Shown piece by piece: positions 1-7,114 of a DNA stretch of 7,114 nt. The stretch comes from a virus (Duplodnaviria > Heunggongvirae > Uroviricota > Caudoviricetes), in IMG/VR virus record IMGVR_UViG_3300019374_000122, positions 1-7,114 of that record; one strand, given 5' to 3'. The notes below the pieces were generated by a model. It did no database searches. It was not told the origin of the DNA and saw nothing but the letters and a program-made list of their open reading frames with translations. Within the stretch, counting starts at the first letter, position 1. Each line of letters begins with the position of its first letter. A program made the position numbers and the translations under genes.

Positions 1-140
1 CCCCACCCCACCACCAATGGCAACAGAAAGCGATTTAGGCCATCCGACATACTCAAGCGCGGATGCAAAGGGCAAAGTCAGAGCGCCACATAGCAAAATC
101 TCGAGCGTTTTTTGCTTCCACCCCCCACCACCGACAATAA
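1..140. repeat. Direct repeat copy 1 (about 96% identical to 322..461, offset 321 bp); holin 3'-region sequence
   Basis: Base-by-base alignment of 1-130 with 322-451 shows 5 mismatches; identity decays over 131-140. The 321-bp offset is a multiple of 3. Confidence 0.9.
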
Positions 141-243
141 CATCATAACCGTGGTTACGTGTCGGTTGTCGCCCGTTATCCGTTCCTTCTGACCATGCAA
201 CCATATCCAGGAAAGCTTTACGCTGGGAATTTAGTACCTGCAT
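1..243 (-). CDS. Endolysin (lambda R-type lytic transglycosylase) 5' portion, fused in-frame after codon ~39 to a diverged copy of the holin 3' region; ORF runs off the window at position 1
   Basis: ATG at 243..241, with AAGGAG at 250-255 six nt upstream and directly after the holin stop. Translation MQVLNSQRKAFLDMVAWSEGTDNGRQPTRNHGYDVIVGG closely matches the N-terminus of phage lambda R as I recall it (MVEINNQRKAFLDMLAWSEGTDNGRQKTRNHGYDVIVGG...). It then continues GGWKQKTLEILLCGALTLPFASALEYVGWPKSLSVAIGGGVG, which is holin sequence. No stop codon before the window edge. Confidence 0.6.
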   Translation of the reverse strand, partial: MQVLNSQRKAFLDMVAWSEGTDNGRQPTRNHGYDVIVGGGGWKQKTLEILLCGALTLPFASALEYVGWPKSLSVAIGGGVG

Positions 244-246
244 AAA

Positions 247-582
247 TTACTCCTTCGAGCTACCAAACTTGTTACCGATTACTCTCATTGCAGCCCCACG
301 AATAGCATCGACACCGATCAGCCCCACCCCACCACCAATGGCAACAGAAAGCGATTTAGGCCATCCGACATACTCAAGCGCGGATGCAAAGGTCAACGTC
401 AGAGCGCCACATAGCAAAATCTCGAGCGTTTTTCGCTTCCAGCCACCACCACCGCCAAAATAGGCGATGCGCAAACCAGCCATAACAATCGACATAATCA
501 CTGCGCCCAGCGGCGTATCTCCACGCCACCAGCTCTGAAACAACTCCAGCCAGTCCGGCCAAGTATTTGGGTTATGAGGCAT
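247..582 (-). CDS. Holin, phage lambda S family (class I, three predicted TM segments)
   Basis: Translation from ATG 582..580 (MPHNPNTWPDWLELFQSWWRGDTPLGAVIMSIVMAGLRIAYFGGGGGWKRK...GVDAIRGAAMRVIGNKFGSSKE) aligns in pattern with lambda S (…AMAYLRGRYNGGAFTKTV…IGTDSIGSLIKRFAAKKAG). It sits immediately upstream of, and is translationally linked to, the endolysin start. The track's longer ORF begins at an in-frame GTG at 678, inside the methyltransferase C-terminus, which I consider unlikely as the start. Confidence 0.8.
   Translation of the reverse strand: MPHNPNTWPDWLELFQSWWRGDTPLGAVIMSIVMAGLRIAYFGGGGGWKRKTLEILLCGALTLTFASALEYVGWPKSLSVAIGGGVGLIGVDAIRGAAMRVIGNKFGSSKE
322..461. repeat. Direct repeat copy 2, lying inside the intact holin gene
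   Basis: Same alignment as copy 1; this copy is embedded in the complete holin ORF. Confidence 0.9.
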
Positions 583-658
583 TTCGTCATCTCTCACCTC
601 GCGATATTTGCGGGTGCTGTGTTGGAAATAAAAAGGCCACGCAACGTGGCCACCAGAA

Positions 659-1710
659 TTATTTCCCCACCAGTTCACTTACCTCTTTCACCGTCTGATT
701 AAATCGCTCTGACTCAAGTTCAACACCTAACGCCCGACGCCCCAGCGCCATTGCCGCTTTTATTGTGGAACCGGATCCCATAAGAAATCAGCAACCAGAT
801 CGCCTTGTCGACTACTGGCACTGATTATTTGCCGGAGCATATCCGCAGGCTTCTCACACGGATGTTTACCCGGGTAGAACTGAACGGGTTTATGCGTCCA
901 GACGTCGGTATAAGGCACGGAAACTGATACGGAGAAATAGCGCCGGAGAGTTTTAAACTCATCCAGCAATTCAGAATATTTGCGATTCAGTGAATCATAA
1001 GATGCCACCAGCTGGTGGTGTGGTTGTTCCAGTTGTTGTTCCTGAAATTTCTCTGCCGCTATACGGGAAAACAGTGCCTGCAACTTCCGGTAGTCAGCCT
1101 CATTCGGCAACTGCCACTGACTGGCACCAAACCAGTGGGAAACCATATTTTTCTTACCTGTGGCTTCGGCAATTTGTTTTGCCGTTATACCCAGTTCGGC
1201 ACGAGCATCCCTGAAATACGATATCAGCGGTGCCATTATGTGCTGTTTGAGTTCCCTTTCTTTTGCCGCATAGCCGTCACTTTTGCCGCGATATGGCCCC
1301 TGGTAATGTTCAGCAAACAGAACGCGCTCTGTGGCAGGAAAATATGCGCGCAGACTTTCTTTATTACACCCATTCCAACGTCCGGACGGCTTCGCCCAGA
1401 TGATATGGTTAAGCACGTTGAAACGTTCACGCATCATGATCTCAATATCAGATGCCAGGCGATGCCCACAGAACAGGTAAAGGCTTCCGGCAGGTTTCAA
1501 CACCCGCCAGAACTGGGCCAGACAGTGGTCCAGCCACTTAAGGTAATCTTCGTCCCCTTTCCACTGATTGTCCCAGCCGTTGGGTTTCACCTTGAAGTAC
1601 GGCGGATCGGTAACAATCAGGTCAATGGAATCATCAGGCAGGGACTGAATAAAATGCAGGCAATCAGCGTTGATTAAATCAACACTGTTTATTTTTACAG
1701 TATTTTTCAT
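659..1710 (-). pseudogene. Beta-class DNA methyltransferase (N6-adenine/N4-cytosine, DPPY motif), disrupted by a 1-nt frameshift just before the C-terminal FxGxG AdoMet-binding motif
   Basis: The ORF 760..1710 carries IVTDPPYF near the N-terminus and ends ...DLVADFLWDPVPQ*. A different frame from ATG 781..779 reads MGSGSTIKAAMALGRRALGVELESERFNQTVKEVSELVGK*, with stop at 661..659, which is the canonical motif I and C-terminus. A single missing base around 782-790 would restore one continuous ORF. Confidence 0.75.
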
Positions 1711-1860
1711 GGATCAGTAAGCGTAACTCTGGTAGGCTCACTCTGCTTTTGCGCTAAAGCAGTGGGCCGTGGTTCGCTTGTGACCAGTAGGCATGAGCGA
1801 ATGGCTGGCAGGTGCTACCAACACCCACCAGCCGCCCATTTTCACAGCAGGAAACCGCCA

Positions 1861-2064
1861 TTACTGGCAGCGTCTGAATTTATTCCCGTACCCGCCGTTA
1901 TCCTTCGCCAGACCCGCCAGAACTAACTGAGTCAGTATTAACTGGCACCGGGCTTCGCTTACTCCGGTAGTTCTCGTCATCATGCGTGGCGTTACCCACT
2001 TGTCAGCAGGTAAGAAATGAAGGACTGCGGCGGCGGTTTCTGTCATATCTTGCTGTTTTAGCAT
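1861..2064 (-). CDS. Small hypothetical protein (67 aa), possibly DNA-binding; function unknown
   Basis: ATG at 2064..2062 is preceded by AAGGGA about 7 nt upstream on the minus strand. Translation: MLKQQDMTETAAAVLHFLPADKWVTPRMMTRTTGVSEARCQLILTQLVLAGLAKDNGGYGNKFRRCQ. The track ORF extends to a GTG at 2148 with no RBS. Confidence 0.4.
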   Translation of the reverse strand: MLKQQDMTETAAAVLHFLPADKWVTPRMMTRTTGVSEARCQLILTQLVLAGLAKDNGGYGNKFRRCQ

Positions 2065-2185
2065 GTTTTTTCCCTTCTGGTTAACATGACATACCAATAA
2101 CTCTTGTCTAAAAAGCCAGCAAGATAAAAAGCCAGTATTCACGACCACCAGCGTGTTTACTGTACTGCACCAGGTTTACAGGTAC

Positions 2186-2207
2186 AAAAAAACCGCTCAG
2201 CGGCGGG
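2186..2207 (-). terminator. Candidate intrinsic terminator for minus-strand transcription (short GC hairpin followed by U7)
   Basis: Minus-strand RNA reads cccgccgcugagcgg followed by uuuuuuu (plus-strand A7 at 2186-2192). The stem is only 4-5 bp, so this is weak. Confidence 0.3.
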
Positions 2208-2287
2208 TTTAAGTTGTGTGGCGAAGTAACCACTCTTAACAGATTACAATGTTTTTTGCGGACCGCGCTAATGATTTCCTCTTTTTT

Positions 2288-2317
2288 TTGTTGTATTTTT
2301 CACACGGTTGCTAAAAT
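2288..2317 (+). promoter_or_regulatory. Candidate sigma70 promoter for the plus-strand island (-35 TTGTTG, 18-nt spacer, -10 TAAAAT), preceded by a T-rich tract
   Basis: TTGTTG at 2288-2293 and TAAAAT at 2312-2317, with a T-rich UP-like tract at 2281-2300. The implied leader before ATG 2333 is very short, so the exact start site is uncertain. Confidence 0.35.
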
Positions 2318-2332
2318 TATTTCGGATCGATA

Positions 2333-3274
2333 ATGAGTACAGAAAATAAGAATAAAACTAGGCGAGTGAGAGTTGGTTTTTTCACTGGTAATGGAAGCAA
2401 AAAAGATGGCACATCTGCTGCAAAACTAGCCTTTGAGCAAATGACCACAGCAGATACTGTAACTTTTCCAATAACTTACACAACAGACACCCCAAATCGA
2501 GGGTTAAAGTTAGTTATTCTTCAAAAAGATACCACACTGCAATGTTACTTTGGTTACGTATCGTGGAGAAGGGAATGCCTACTACCGTTCATCGAGGATG
2601 CTACAGGTAGTGAGAGAACAATTCCTTTAAATGATAAAGATTCTGTAGTTGAAAGAACATATTTTATCTATTACTACGAAACGGATTTATTAGCTATGAC
2701 CCTCAACCATATAGGGCCCAAAGTAAATGATCTGGCATTCATTTTGTATAACAAAACTGATTTAAAAAGCGTCACTTTTGAAGCCATTTGGAAACAAGAG
2801 AGCATGAAGGAACTGCTTGAGGACGGAAATATCCTACGTAGTTTCGATCTTATAGTTGCTGCTCCAAGAAACTTTAACAAAGCTAATTATAAGATTAAAA
2901 ACCCTTTAGCTAATGAAATTATTGACATGGTTGTTGGTATGGGCGGGTCGCATCTAAGATTAAATATGCGAGGTCGGATTCGCCCGAAAAAACAAGGTTT
3001 TAACTATCTAAAAACTTCTGTCACCGATGCTATTAAGGAACTACTTGAACTTTTTCCAAAAGGTTCTGGAGGTCTAAAAATTAAAAAAATTGATGTAACA
3101 GAGCCATCCAATAGAACGCCCAAAAGTCTACTTGACCAAGTATTGGTCAGTACAAAGACAATCATTGTCAAAAGCGGTTATCCATCCGATTCTGATATCA
3201 GAACGGCGATGATATCTGCTAAAATTGATAACGCGAACTATCTTGCACAGTATGAGCTCGCTAGCAGAGACTAA
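2333..3274 (+). CDS. Hypothetical soluble protein (313 aa), first gene of the AT-rich island; candidate sensor component of a phage-exclusion/abortive-infection module
   Basis: Long uninterrupted ORF in an AT-rich segment (about 38% GC in a 100-nt hand count at 2333-2432, against about 48% at 4201-4300 in the flank). No Walker A, DPPY, HNH or other motif that I recognise. Its stop is 22 nt from the RBS-led start of the membrane-protein gene. Confidence 0.8.
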   Translation: MSTENKNKTRRVRVGFFTGNGSKKDGTSAAKLAFEQMTTADTVTFPITYTTDTPNRGLKLVILQKDTTLQCYFGYVSWRRECLLPFIEDATGSERTIPLNDKDSVVERTYFIYYYETDLLAMTLNHIGPKVNDLAFILYNKTDLKSVTFEAIWKQESMKELLEDGNILRSFDLIVAAPRNFNKANYKIKNPLANEIIDMVVGMGGSHLRLNMRGRIRPKKQGFNYLKTSVTDAIKELLELFPKGSGGLKIKKIDVTEPSNRTPKSLLDQVLVSTKTIIVKSGYPSDSDIRTAMISAKIDNANYLAQYELASRD

Positions 3275-3295
3275 TAACCAAGCATGGAGGACACA

Positions 3296-3745
3296 ATGAG
3301 AGAATTAGCCACTTTTCTCTGGAAATGCGTCCTCTGGATTCTGTTGACCTATGCAGCGACAAAACTGTTTAAACCGATGAAGCATGCTGACGTACTCACA
3401 ACAGCGGGGGTGCTCTCGACTATATCAGGCATCCTGTTTGGTTTTGTTCTGGCTGCAATATCTATATTTAGTAGTGCAAACAGCGATAAGGAAGGAGCAA
3501 TTAATGCCCTTAAGCAAAACAACGTGTTACCAACTCTGGTAAATCGATTACTTTCAACAGGGTTAACTCTCATCGTCGCATGTATATTTCCATTGATAGC
3601 GATGTTTCTACCAGATGATGTTATTGTTGCGGGCAAACCTATTGATTTCCTATTCATACTGTTAGGCTTATCCTCCCTTATAATTTCGCTATATACCTTC
3701 GGAAGGTGTTGGTTAGTGTTACGAAAAATCTTCCCCCACTTGTGA
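3296..3745 (+). CDS. Small integral membrane protein (~149 aa, four predicted TM helices); candidate effector of the island
   Basis: GGAGG at 3286-3290 lies 5 nt upstream of ATG 3296; an alternative ATG at 3284 has no RBS. Four hydrophobic stretches: LATFLWKCVLWILLTYAATKLF, VLTTAGVLSTISGILFGFVLAAISIF, LPTLVNRLLSTGLTLIVACIFPLIAMFL, PIDFLFILLGLSSLIISLYTFGRCWLVL. Confidence 0.8.
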   Translation: MRELATFLWKCVLWILLTYAATKLFKPMKHADVLTTAGVLSTISGILFGFVLAAISIFSSANSDKEGAINALKQNNVLPTLVNRLLSTGLTLIVACIFPLIAMFLPDDVIVAGKPIDFLFILLGLSSLIISLYTFGRCWLVLRKIFPHL

Positions 3746-3774
3746 CAGGTTGGCCTCATATGGGGCCAACCTGT
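3745..3774. terminator. Perfect 11-bp inverted repeat (acaggttggcc / ggccaacctgt) with 8-nt loop, between the convergent island and Q; likely bidirectional stem-loop terminator or insulator
   Basis: Left arm 3745-3755, right arm 3764-3774, loop tcatatgg. It overlaps the stop codon of the membrane-protein gene and lies 7 bp from the Q stop. There is no adjacent U-run on either strand. Confidence 0.5.
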
Positions 3775-3780
3775 GCAACC

Positions 3781-4149
3781 CTAAGCGTCCATTTCAAGGT
3801 TAACATCCAACATTGAAAGGCAACCATCAATAAATCCTTCGGCTAGTTGTATTTCTATGCGTACCAATTTTTCATCCTTTCCACGCACCTTTGCAATCTT
3901 ACGCTTGGATATTCTGTATAAATAATGTGCCACAAGCAGCGAGTGCTCATCTGGCTTTTTTTGCTTTAGACGAGCAAGACAACCTTCAATAATTAATGCA
4001 TCACTATCTGAACAAGCCTGACGTGTTTTGCTTGTGTAGGGAAGAAGCCCCTTAAACCCAGCAGCTATAGGCGAATAGTCTACTCCAGAACTATCACTCG
4101 CCGCCCATGCTCCCCAACGCTCCAGAACCATCTGAATATCACGCATCAA
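3781..4149 (-). CDS. Late-gene antitermination protein Q (phage 82/21 QuuD-like family)
   Basis: Translation MMRDIQMVLERWGAWAA... matches the N-terminal signature of QuuD-type Q proteins as I recall it (MRDIQMVLERWGAWAA...). GGAG lies 7 nt upstream of ATG 4149. Position upstream of the lysis genes fits. Confidence 0.85.
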   Translation of the reverse strand: MMRDIQMVLERWGAWAASDSSGVDYSPIAAGFKGLLPYTSKTRQACSDSDALIIEGCLARLKQKKPDEHSLLVAHYLYRISKRKIAKVRGKDEKLVRIEIQLAEGFIDGCLSMLDVNLEMDA

Positions 4150-4163
4150 CTTTCTCCACCAAA

Positions 4164-5159
4164 TCAGGCCAACACACCAATCGCCAGCGCGCGATCGATA
4201 AAACGAAATATCAGCTCCAGTTGGGAGCCATACTTCTCTTCAAATGCCACGGTATCCGCATGCAGCTCGTCGTGATGCTTTCTGCACAAAGGCAACACAA
4301 AGAGGTCATGCGCTTTTGTACCCATTCCACCCTGACCGTGACCTATCAGGTGGTGGGGATCATCAGCAGGCTTTCCACAACATGCACACGGCTGTGTCTT
4401 AACCCAGCGCGTGTACTTTTCATTAACCCAGCGGCGGCGTTTTGGGCGTAACATAAAAGACTCCGGCGACTCCGGATCCACTTTCAGCGCCAGCACCTTT
4501 TTCGCCTTATCCTGGATGATGCTGGTGGCAGGAACCGAAGGCACAAGGTCACTTTCCCGGGTGACAGACGGCACAACAGGCTTCGGTAATCTCAGTGCCT
4601 TACGGGCTGCACTTTCCGGTAAGGCATCTGCCAGATCATTACGAATCAGCCACCAGCACAGTTCCGGCATTGTCACAACGTGACTATCATCAAAACCGAG
4701 ATCCCGACGCACAACAGACAACACCCAGCGGGCACAGTTATCCGTTGCCATTGATTCCAGCCGTTCCGTGAACTGATCGCGAAGCTGGTTATCGCAGTGC
4801 CAGCACAGACGGATTGCGCCCGGCGCGTGTCGCATTGTGGTCATGTTCTCGCTGTGCCAGTCGGAATGAGGCCACTGGCAGCCTTTTTCACGAAGTAACC
4901 AGCTTTCAAGACATTCCACCCCACCAGCACGACGAATCACTGCCTCATTACGGAACACGGCCAGAACGGCAGGATCATCCGCCAGCGGTTGTGATGCCGC
5001 AGGAACGGCACCACTGGCGAAAGATGAATAACGCTCCGGCTCAGGCTCCAGCAGAACACGGCCCTGCATAAACAGGGGCATCAGCTCTGAACCTGGCCTG
5101 AACAATACGATCCCCATACGCGGGGCAATTTCAGGGGTCAGTAGTGCTCTCACGGTCAC
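4164..5159 (-). CDS. DUF968-like prophage protein with C-terminal Cys/His-rich (HNH-like) motif; start codon uncertain
   Basis: 331-aa ORF; C-terminus PCACCGKPADDPHHLIGHGQGGMGTKAHDLFVLPLCRKHHDELH. The track start is a GTG at 5159, one nt after the KilA-N stop, with no clear RBS; internal ATGs are alternative starts. Confidence 0.65.
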   Translation of the reverse strand: MTVRALLTPEIAPRMGIVLFRPGSELMPLFMQGRVLLEPEPERYSSFASGAVPAASQPLADDPAVLAVFRNEAVIRRAGGVECLESWLLREKGCQWPHSDWHSENMTTMRHAPGAIRLCWHCDNQLRDQFTERLESMATDNCARWVLSVVRRDLGFDDSHVVTMPELCWWLIRNDLADALPESAARKALRLPKPVVPSVTRESDLVPSVPATSIIQDKAKKVLALKVDPESPESFMLRPKRRRWVNEKYTRWVKTQPCACCGKPADDPHHLIGHGQGGMGTKAHDLFVLPLCRKHHDELHADTVAFEEKYGSQLELIFRFIDRALAIGVLA

Positions 5160-5160
5160 C

Positions 5161-5970
5161 TCAATGAACGGTATCGAGCAGCTTTAACAGCTCAGTGAAT
5201 CGGGATTCGAAGAAATGCGGCTGCGTCTCGCGCGGATTTGCAGGACTGGTGATGTTCTTGCCGAACATGCAGCCTTTCGCCGTCAGCGACCAGAATTTTT
5301 TGATGTTGTTAATCGCTGTACGGCTGTATCGTTCGCGCTGTTCGACGATCCCCAGCTTCGCCATCTGGTGATATGCCTGATTAGCCGTCAGGCGGATACC
5401 ATACTGCTTCAGCAGTGCACTCAGTGACAGCGTGGGGCGGCTTGAGCCATCAGGCGCGTCAGCAGGAACATCAATGGCATAACGCGGTGCCAGATTCGGT
5501 AAGCCAACAGCCTCCTGGAGTTTCTGACAGGCCCCAAGCACAGATGAGTTAGACAGATTTAACTCCCGGCGCATAAAGTCCAGCAGAATCACGCCAGCCT
5601 GCATCTTGTCAGCAGCCTGTCCGGATAACTTTTCCGGCGCGCTGGTTACCATATCGAAAGTACGGATCACCTTCAGATGGAATGACGGGCTGATCCACAT
5701 TGCATAGGCATACACCAGTTCCTTACAGACATACGTTCCCCGTTCATTTCCCCCATGAATCACACTAACTGGGTCAACACCCAAATTCTGGGTGTTGATT
5801 AATTCATGAACAAGATCAACAGTTTGTTGGCTGGAAAGAAACTTTCCTGGCTCCTTGGTTCTGGCATTTGCACCAGATGCTACTGCTGCGCGATGCAGAT
5901 CGTTCAGGCTGTAACGCTCATAAGCATCACGACGAACTTCAATACCATCAATGACCATCAGATTATTCAT
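5161..5970 (-). CDS. KilA-N domain protein (Roi/antirepressor-like DNA-binding protein)
   Basis: N-terminus MNNLMVIDGIEVRRDAYERYSLNDLHRAAVASG... fits the KilA-N pattern. ATG 5970 is preceded by GAGGGG about 8 nt upstream. Confidence 0.7.
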   Translation of the reverse strand: MNNLMVIDGIEVRRDAYERYSLNDLHRAAVASGANARTKEPGKFLSSQQTVDLVHELINTQNLGVDPVSVIHGGNERGTYVCKELVYAYAMWISPSFHLKVIRTFDMVTSAPEKLSGQAADKMQAGVILLDFMRRELNLSNSSVLGACQKLQEAVGLPNLAPRYAIDVPADAPDGSSRPTLSLSALLKQYGIRLTANQAYHQMAKLGIVEQRERYSRTAINNIKKFWSLTAKGCMFGKNITSPANPRETQPHFFESRFTELLKLLDTVH

Positions 5971-5989
5971 ACTTCGTTTCCCCTCTTAA

Positions 5990-6379
5990 TCAGGCAGCTG
6001 CACCCGCCGTTTTCTCGTACTTACTGATAGTGATCTCGACCTTCCCTTCCGGGATAACCGGTCCCCACTCCACCAGCATTCTTTTCACCTGACTGTCGTC
6101 TTCCCACACCCCCGCGTGGGTCAGGGCGTCAAACAGCGCCTTGTTATAGTTGTCCAGATCGCGGATCCTGTTATCCGGAGGAAACAACACGATCTCCACT
6201 GAAGCAGGTGCCGACGTTGGTTTCGGCAGACGACGTAACTGCTCAACTATTGCTGCGCACGCCGCGCTCTGGAATTTTCGCCCCGCCGCGCTTATCAGGC
6301 TCTTACCAGCAAACGCCCCTTTGTTGGGGTGTCGCCAGTACGTGTTCACGCTGGGCGGAAAAGGCAGGATCAGCTTCAT
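5990..6379 (-). CDS. rusA: Holliday junction resolvase RusA
   Basis: MKLILPFPPSVNTYWRH...RIRDLDNYNKALFDALTHAGVWEDDSQV matches the E. coli RusA pattern (PWPPSxNxYYRH...[28 protein letters not shown]), including the catalytic Asp cluster. Its start overlaps the upstream stop as ATGA. Confidence 0.9.
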   Translation of the reverse strand: MKLILPFPPSVNTYWRHPNKGAFAGKSLISAAGRKFQSAACAAIVEQLRRLPKPTSAPASVEIVLFPPDNRIRDLDNYNKALFDALTHAGVWEDDSQVKRMLVEWGPVIPEGKVEITISKYEKTAGAAA

Positions 6380-6702
6380 ACTTTCAGGCCCCTCTCATGT
6401 AACCAGTGGGTTGCACGCAGCCTTGCGTTTTCCTCACCGGCAAGCAGTGAGCGGATAATCCCGACCGCCTCGCTGTCGTCGTCCTTCACCGCGGTATGAA
6501 GCGTGATGCCCCGGGCCACGCCACGCTTTATCGTGATGACGCCTTTTTTCTCCAGTGCGCGAAGATGCTCCACCGCTGCATTCACTGAACGGTATCCCAG
6601 CATGGTTGCCACCTCCTGATTGGTTGGCGGGAAGCCACGTTCTTTCTGATAAGAAATCAGCATATCCAGCACCTGCTGCTGGCATTGAGTTAACGTCGTC
6701 AT
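6376..6702 (-). CDS. LexA N-terminal DNA-binding-domain homolog lacking the S24 peptidase domain (108 aa)
   Basis: From ATG 6702..6700: MTTLTQCQQQVLDMLISYQKERGFPPTNQEVATMLGYRSVNAAVEHLRALEKKGVITIKRGVARGITL aligns with E. coli LexA residues ~4-68 ([65 protein letters not shown]). No Ser/Lys protease domain follows. The start overlaps the upstream stop as TAATG. Confidence 0.8.
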   Translation of the reverse strand: MTTLTQCQQQVLDMLISYQKERGFPPTNQEVATMLGYRSVNAAVEHLRALEKKGVITIKRGVARGITLHTAVKDDDSEAVGIIRSLLAGEENARLRATHWLHERGLKV

Positions 6703-7052
6703 TAAGCCCCCACGTAATTCCCTGACAGATACCACTCATCACCCGATGCAGCGCGCTTGCTGCTTTTCCGTAAGCACCGCTCACGACGCGCAAGAAAATT
6801 GTTTCGCTCTTGCTGGGAGTGGCTTTCACGGAATGCCGCCATCCACACCGTTGCAGCACGACGGTATAAGCCCCTGGACTCCAGTTCTTCCGCCTGGCGG
6901 GTCAGGCACAAAATCTCCCGCGGGTCGTTAGTGCCGACATAGAAATTGCGCACAGGTCTGGTTTCACGAACTGGTTGCGGTTCCGCCTCCTGCGCTCTCT
7001 CAGTCAGGCGCGGGAAATGTCTGCGTGTATCCCCTTCACAACGGTGAGCCAC
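6702..7052 (-). CDS. PerC-family-like regulator domain; true start uncertain because the frame stays open to the window edge
   Basis: AEELESRGLYRRAATVWMAAF...ERNNFLARRERCL resembles the PerC/Pch pattern (AExLExxGxWRRAAxxW...RRxxCL). The track start is a GTG at 7052, and the same frame has no stop between 7053 and 7114. Confidence 0.55.
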   Translation of the reverse strand: MAHRCEGDTRRHFPRLTERAQEAEPQPVRETRPVRNFYVGTNDPREILCLTRQAEELESRGLYRRAATVWMAAFRESHSQQERNNFLARRERCLRKSSKRAASGDEWYLSGNYVGA

Positions 7053-7114
7053 ACGACCACTCTGACGTAACTTGCTTGCTGACTGCAGAACGCGCTGCCG
7101 TGAGTAACCTGCAA

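Follow-up and report, generated by a model that had tools for sequence, protein, structure and literature searches.

The window analysed here is a stretch of 7,114 nucleotides (nt) of tailed-phage DNA (Caudoviricetes; IMG/VR record IMGVR_UViG_3300019374_000122, positions 1 to 7,114). The feature under study, located at 6702..7114 on the minus strand, is the 3' part of yfdN, cut off by the window edge; yfdN belongs to lambdoid prophages of the SfV/mEp460/CPS-53 type in E. coli and Shigella. The minus-strand frame 7112..6705 is free of stops over 136 codons (window translation: AGYSRQ...AEELESRGLYRRAATVWMAAF...RRERCL...WYLSGNYVGA), is terminated by TAA at 6704..6702 and stays open up to the window edge. 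An earlier note, made from the sequence alone, had pointed to AEELESRGLYRRAATVWMAAF ... RRERCL as a motif resembling PerC and Pch regulators and to the absence of a stop up to 7114, and both observations were reproduced. The Pfam PerC profile (PF06069), the search which that note had proposed, matched the window fragment with 39.2 bits and an E-value of 8.4e-10 (curated cut-off 22.6 bits) over residues 72-124 of the window translation, corresponding to 6741..6899. The full-length protein scored 38.7 bits against the same cut-off. The open PerC-like frame is real and far above chance level. No match was obtained in an Rfam scan over the entire window, and no direct or inverted repeats were found within 6300..7114.

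Many E. coli chromosomes contain the DNA of 6300..7114 with 100% identity, and a match was present in 2669 of the 5426 complete E. coli genomes, K-12 being among the yfdN carriers. The identity to the phages SfV, SfIV and mEp460 and to several Stx2c phages was 97-98%. In RefSeq, the identical gene in many of the E. coli chromosomes is labelled "yfdN: PerC family transcriptional regulator" and has 164 amino acids (aa); the YfdN studied here shares 95% identity with YfdN of the K-12 prophage CPS-53 (b2357) across all 164 residues. The gene is thus already known, being annotated in thousands of genomes, and its open frame is an artefact of the window edge.

The part of the gene beyond position 7114 was read from L001, a 16.8-kb locus of a related prophage whose DNA is identical to the window over yfdN (window 6702..7114 is identical to L001 8001..8413, and window 7114 corresponds to L001 8001). 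The coding sequence in L001, which RefSeq likewise names yfdN, has 495 nt and encodes 164 aa, or 162 aa if counted from an ATG. The annotated GTG start is located 82 nt past the window edge, whereas the ATG, with an AGGGGG Shine-Dalgarno sequence 5 nt upstream, lies 6 nt 3' of this GTG and 76 nt past the edge. Many yfdN homologues start at the ATG position (MSLL...). The frame runs off the window because the gene begins 76-82 nt past its edge, as the extension suggested in the earlier note revealed. The supposition that the frame is the C-terminal domain of a larger protein held insofar as the window contains the C-terminal part of a 164-aa coding sequence; the protein is only 26-28 residues longer and is encoded by a free-standing gene. 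A domain of a replication or nin protein was ruled out, since the upstream gene of 313 aa (HTH_36/DnaD_N) has its own stop in the identical locus.

Within the window, the first start codon in frame is indeed a GTG, at 7052, which encodes Val49 in the N-terminal domain's wing. In the 20 in-window codons 5' of it, 9 synonymous and 2 amino-acid variants were counted among 59 distinct close copies, and this segment could be aligned to relatives of 25-47% identity. The excess of synonymous variants indicates that the segment is coding and not a leader. GTG 7052 was therefore ruled out as the start, because Val49 belongs to the wing of a conserved domain and purifying selection acts on the codons upstream.

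Domain architecture and relatives

The structure of YfdN was modelled with AlphaFold2 on the family alignment, resulting in a mean predicted local distance difference test score (pLDDT) of 78. The gene and the predicted parts of its product are located in the window as follows.

6702..7114, minus strand: 3' 84% of the yfdN-type gene (residues 29-164 of the annotated 164 aa, two bases of codon 28 and the TAA)
7011..7112, minus strand: in-window part of the predicted N-terminal winged helix, with recognition helix H3 (residues 33-46) and the beta-hairpin wing (residues 49-62); helices 1 and 2 are encoded beyond the window edge
6924..7010, minus strand: variable linker, predicted to be disordered (residues 63-91)
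6759..6923, minus strand: PerC/ANR-type three-helix module (residues 92-146), with A102, L105, R113, A114, R138 and C141 invariant in the family alignment; the Pfam match extends over 6741..6899
6708..6734, minus strand: C-terminal tail WYLSGNYVG, with the consensus W-[YC]-L-[SA]-G-x-[YF]-x-G and low AlphaFold2 confidence

The N-terminal approximately 60 residues are predicted to fold as a separate winged-helix domain. Helices were modelled at residues 5-15, 21-27 and 33-46 and a hairpin at 49-62 (pLDDT 83-89), i.e. the three-helix helix-turn-helix followed by a beta-hairpin wing which is characteristic of winged-helix domains of the MarR/BlaI/ArsR-like type. In the family alignment, this block reads NPG-TS--IA-AF ... 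V-R----L---GR and is followed by the variable linker. By sequence, the domain does not belong to any curated winged helix-turn-helix family: no Pfam family was found on residues 1-65 at E<=1, and the weak matches were to BilQ (E 2e-4, far under its cut-off) and to a MarR protein in PDB (E 0.003). Foldseek against viral structures returned only generic winged-helix matches. The linker varies in length and sequence across alignment A1, has a pLDDT below 50 at residues 65-83 and carried 9 synonymous and 10 amino-acid variants.

The C-terminal domain was modelled as helices 92-107, 111-124 and 128-146 with a pLDDT of 90-95. Its fold resembles tetratricopeptide repeats, which is of the protein-interaction type and unlike any known DNA-binding fold; no solved PerC or ANR structure was found in a PDB sequence search. 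Both domains are basic, with isoelectric points of 9.7 for the winged helix and 10.7 for the PerC/ANR-type domain. The WYLSGNYVG tail is retained by two-domain relatives with as little as about 25% identity, as well as by a few short relatives, and is absent from PerC/Pch-like short proteins. The tail is predicted to be disordered and is probably a short linear interaction motif. The assignment of the frame to yfdN and the two-domain architecture are, taken together, practically certain.

When 1.84 billion cluster representatives were searched exhaustively with phmmer, only 103 matches to YfdN were obtained. About 25 of them were full-length two-domain relatives with 25-47% identity, and about 10 more were proteins of approximately 140 aa with a more divergent N-terminal domain. 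The other non-fragment matches included short PerC-only proteins of 80-95 aa. The search for related loci with alignment A2 resulted only in relatives of at least 95% identity.

YfdN belongs to the same Pfam family as PerC (pEAF of enteropathogenic E. coli) and PchA/B/C (prophages of enterohaemorrhagic E. coli, EHEC), which are activators or de-silencers of LEE1 in the enterocyte-effacement locus (LEE). All are encoded on mobile elements and share the core A-E-x-L-E-x-x-G-L-[YW]-R-R-A-A-x-x-W ... R-R-x-x-C. The profile score and the core motif (LExxGLxRRAA...W...RRxxC) of YfdN agree with those of the PerC family, whereas its size does not: PerC and Pch are small single-domain proteins of about 90-105 aa, and YfdN has 162-164 aa with an extra winged helix, a linker and the WYLSGNYVG tail. 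The PerC/Pch resemblance proposed earlier was also borne out by the comparison with PchE (ECs1588, Sakai Sp7), in which BLASTP gave 40% identity over 52 aa (E 3e-10) and hhalign a probability of 97.7%. Similarly to yfdN, pchE is located just behind the replication module of its element (primase, ssb). PchE was ruled out as the EHEC orthologue of YfdN, being a 90-aa PerC-only protein in an Sp7 element that resembles phage-inducible chromosomal islands (PICI).

Position in the early operon

The annotated GTG of yfdN overlaps by 4 nt the stop of the 313-aa replication-initiator-like gene (HTH_36/DnaD_N) in L001, and its TAA overlaps, as TAATG, the ATG (6700..6702) of a 108-aa gene which encodes only a LexA DNA-binding domain (DBD). 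RusA, KilA-N, DUF968/HNH and antiterminator Q genes follow downstream. The scan for promoters and terminators around yfdN revealed no promoter-like and no sense-strand terminator-like site above shuffled expectation. Owing to the tight packing between the initiator and the next early gene and to the lack of flanking signals, yfdN is expected to be transcribed with the early-right (pR-type) operon in lytic development. It is a fixed member of this operon and not a moron with its own expression signals. The earlier note had placed the frame at the upstream end of the operon, which proved to be only the upstream end of the window, since in L001 the frame is preceded by the replication gene, cII and cro.

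The order of the module was determined to be cI(S24) ... initiator (HTH_36 or Phg_2220_C), YfdN-type gene, [Dam / MT-A70 / DNA_methylase], [LexA-DBD], RusA, KilA-N, DUF968, Q. This order is conserved around YfdN-type genes in Hafnia, Salmonella and metagenomic phages, and is likewise kept around homologues with 31-33% identity. With an order conserved down to about 31% identity, YfdN looks like a phage-cycle regulator rather than a virulence moron. In K-12, yfdN of the cryptic prophage CPS-53/KpLE1 has the same class of upstream neighbour (yfdO, a replication-protein remnant), but the prophage has decayed and yfdN is followed by the methyltransferase remnant yfdM and tail-fibre debris. In contrast, yfdN of the window directly abuts the LexA-DBD-only gene and belongs to an intact-looking nin/Q/lysis region. 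The only points that are mildly new are descriptive: an N-terminal winged helix that had not been catalogued, the conservation of the tail motif and the unvarying location of the gene right behind the replication initiator.

Possible function of YfdN

In the literature, yfdN was named "the K12 unique PerC homologue" and was deleted from a ler-lacZ reporter strain only by way of precaution (PMC5931665); further mentions originate from high-throughput work (PMC2853380, PMC6206680, PMC5320621) and from a predicted interactome, in a cluster concerned with negative regulation of transcription (bioRxiv 10.1101/2025.05.07.652715). No published assay of LEE1/ler activation by YfdN was found in the literature.

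In the mechanism proposed here, the winged helix would bind DNA and so position the protein, while the PerC/ANR module, probably together with the conserved tail, would contact, as the phage grows lytically, either a nucleoid-silencing protein or a different regulator. YfdN might thereby remodel H-NS/StpA/Hha-type silencing complexes or sequester the regulator at phage or host targets. This model is suggested because Pch proteins activate LEE1 only through relief of H-NS/StpA/Hha silencing, with lowered H-NS occupancy (PMC4764244), Aar binds H-NS directly and modulates its silencing (PMC5570504), YfdN, with a sub-threshold score, and most of its relatives match the ANR model and share the conserved Cys, and the fold of the PerC module is of the protein-interaction type. 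A DNA-tethered YfdN whose PerC/ANR module engages a silencing protein or regulator has, in our estimation, a chance somewhat short of even.

The role implied by the earlier note, a classical PerC/Pch-type lysogenic-conversion activator of ler/LEE1 or of another virulence island, would agree with the Pfam PerC membership, with the 40% identity to PchE over the core and with the prophage location shared with pchA-C. It is nevertheless very improbable: yfdN is carried by nearly half of the complete E. coli genomes, including K-12, which is without the LEE; the gene lacks its own promoter, overlaps with the genes on either side in a lytic early operon and encodes a winged-helix domain missing in PerC and Pch. 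Moreover, several PerC-family members have no effect on LEE1 or repress it (PMC5931665, PMC11773190). PchA-C raise ler more than 4-fold, but the divergent PchD and PchE barely activate it (PMC5931665). For PchE, repression of curli and adhesins and an action on flagella have been reported (PMC7369912). The PICI-encoded PerC-family protein EcCIMP1_025 silences LEE1-lux in C. rodentium, and its authors noted a similarity to ANRs and suggested an ANR-like action (PMC11773190). Compared by description, this protein is encoded, as is YfdN, on a phage-related element, a PICI in its case and a lambdoid phage in that of YfdN.

Such an ANR-like anti-activator would inactivate a transcription factor of the AraC/XylS type, or another one, with its three-helix module by protein contact alone, the net effect being repression. 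Besides the example of EcCIMP1_025, this explanation is in line with the match of YfdN to the NCBIfam model ANR_neg_reg (NF033650; 24.2 bits, E 2.2e-5) and with the matches of 21 of the 28 YfdN relatives at E<=0.01, the best being 4e-9. ANRs are proteins of 39-80 aa which are encoded beside AraC-family activators and have three helices and a conserved Cys (PMC4038620); the predicted three helices of YfdN, with the invariant C141 in the last, correspond to the small module of this family, of which Aar of the enteroaggregative strain E. coli 042 is a member. However, the score is under the curated cut-off of 32 and PerC scores better, YfdN is more than twice the size of an ANR, and neither the window nor the 16.8 kb of L001 contained an AraC-family gene. 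With a sub-threshold score and yet so many matching relatives, a related family is indicated rather than membership, and anti-activation by contact alone is considered unlikely.

Alternatively, YfdN could be a replication-module accessory in the lambda P/ren slot, which helps the single initiator to recruit host replication factors or protects the phage from exclusion. In relatives down to 31% identity, the gene is always directly behind the sole replication gene, here with the 4-nt overlap, and these modules have no P-like or DnaB/DnaC-like gene. Its position is the same as that of ren in Sakai Sp8, the N-terminal domain gave a weak Ren-like match (phrog_142, E 1.2e-3, residues 3-68), and pchE of the PICI-like Sp7 is also found behind primase and ssb. 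Against this stand the probability of only 14% in hhalign with the Ren homologue of Sakai Sp8, the lack of any Pfam match of YfdN to lambda P or to a helicase-loader or other replication family at E<=1 (HTH_36 and DnaD_N being in the separate upstream gene), and the action on transcription of all characterised relatives of the C-terminal domain. An accessory role in replication is accordingly rated as improbable.

A more specific form of the silencing model would regard YfdN-type proteins as the DNA-targeted form of the PerC/ANR superfamily, in which the winged helix docks the protein and the PerC module and WYLSGNYVG tail locally dismantle H-NS/StpA/Hha silencing, or another host regulator, in the lytic phase. 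The target might be AT-rich phage cargo, such as the cassette with 37-41% GC at 2000-4000 of the window. This form is doubtful; if true, PerC, Pch and Aar would be free-standing relatives of the YfdN module, and a family known only from virulence regulation would obtain a rationale in phage biology.

By itself, the finding of yfdN is correct but ordinary and adds little, the gene being already catalogued. What may be of modest value is the two-domain build of the YfdN branch, which is widespread within the PerC family, and its fixed place in the early lytic operon right behind the initiator in divergent lambdoid phages; this suggests that in phages the PerC/ANR-type module serves their own development rather than virulence. 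K-12 b2357 is a tractable model for how PerC/ANR modules act.

Neighbouring genes

The gene adjoining yfdN downstream was annotated as follows.

6376..6702, minus strand: LexA DNA-binding-domain-only protein of 108 aa (Pfam LexA_DNA_bind, 69 bits, residues 1-65; L001 annotation), without the S24 self-cleavage domain

The LexA-DBD-only gene is conserved in the yfdN module of distant phages, and its product could, when SOS is induced, bind LexA boxes without being cleavable. Between yfdN and the next gene, most related phages carry a gene for a DNA methylase (Dam, MT-A70 or a large DNA_methylase fusion). It is absent here, and the breakpoint falls exactly on the TAATG stop/start overlap at 6700..6704. 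The yfdN/LexA-like junction is a clean case of module exchange at gene boundaries. Just past the window edge on the other side of yfdN, L001 6981..7922 holds a replication gene (of the HTH_36/DnaD_N or Phg_2220_C type in these phages), apparently the only one. The phages are apparently without a lambda-P-like, DnaB-like or DnaC-like partner gene, and yfdN occupies the slot of lambda P and ren.

Further downstream, a DUF968 protein with a weak HNH-nuclease signature (4164..5159, minus strand) and a KilA-N protein (5161..5970, minus strand) are encoded; this pair of genes is conserved between RusA and Q in every related locus. PADLOC detected nothing relevant among the genes neighbouring yfdN. 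Between antiterminator Q and a DNA methyltransferase gene, a two-gene AT-rich cassette (2333..3274 and 3284..3745) lies on the opposite, plus strand, with a GC content of 37-43% compared with about 51-56% in most of the remaining window. It encodes a protein of 313 aa and a hydrophobic protein of 153 aa, for which no Pfam or PADLOC match was obtained, only a sub-threshold one to DUF4064. In the related prophage L001, the same slot is occupied by an 'ATP-dependent nuclease'. A complete copy of the cassette is present in 72 E. coli genomes, with both genes labelled hypothetical, and its appearance is that of a moron or defence cassette, as yet uncharacterised, in the Q-to-lysis hotspot.
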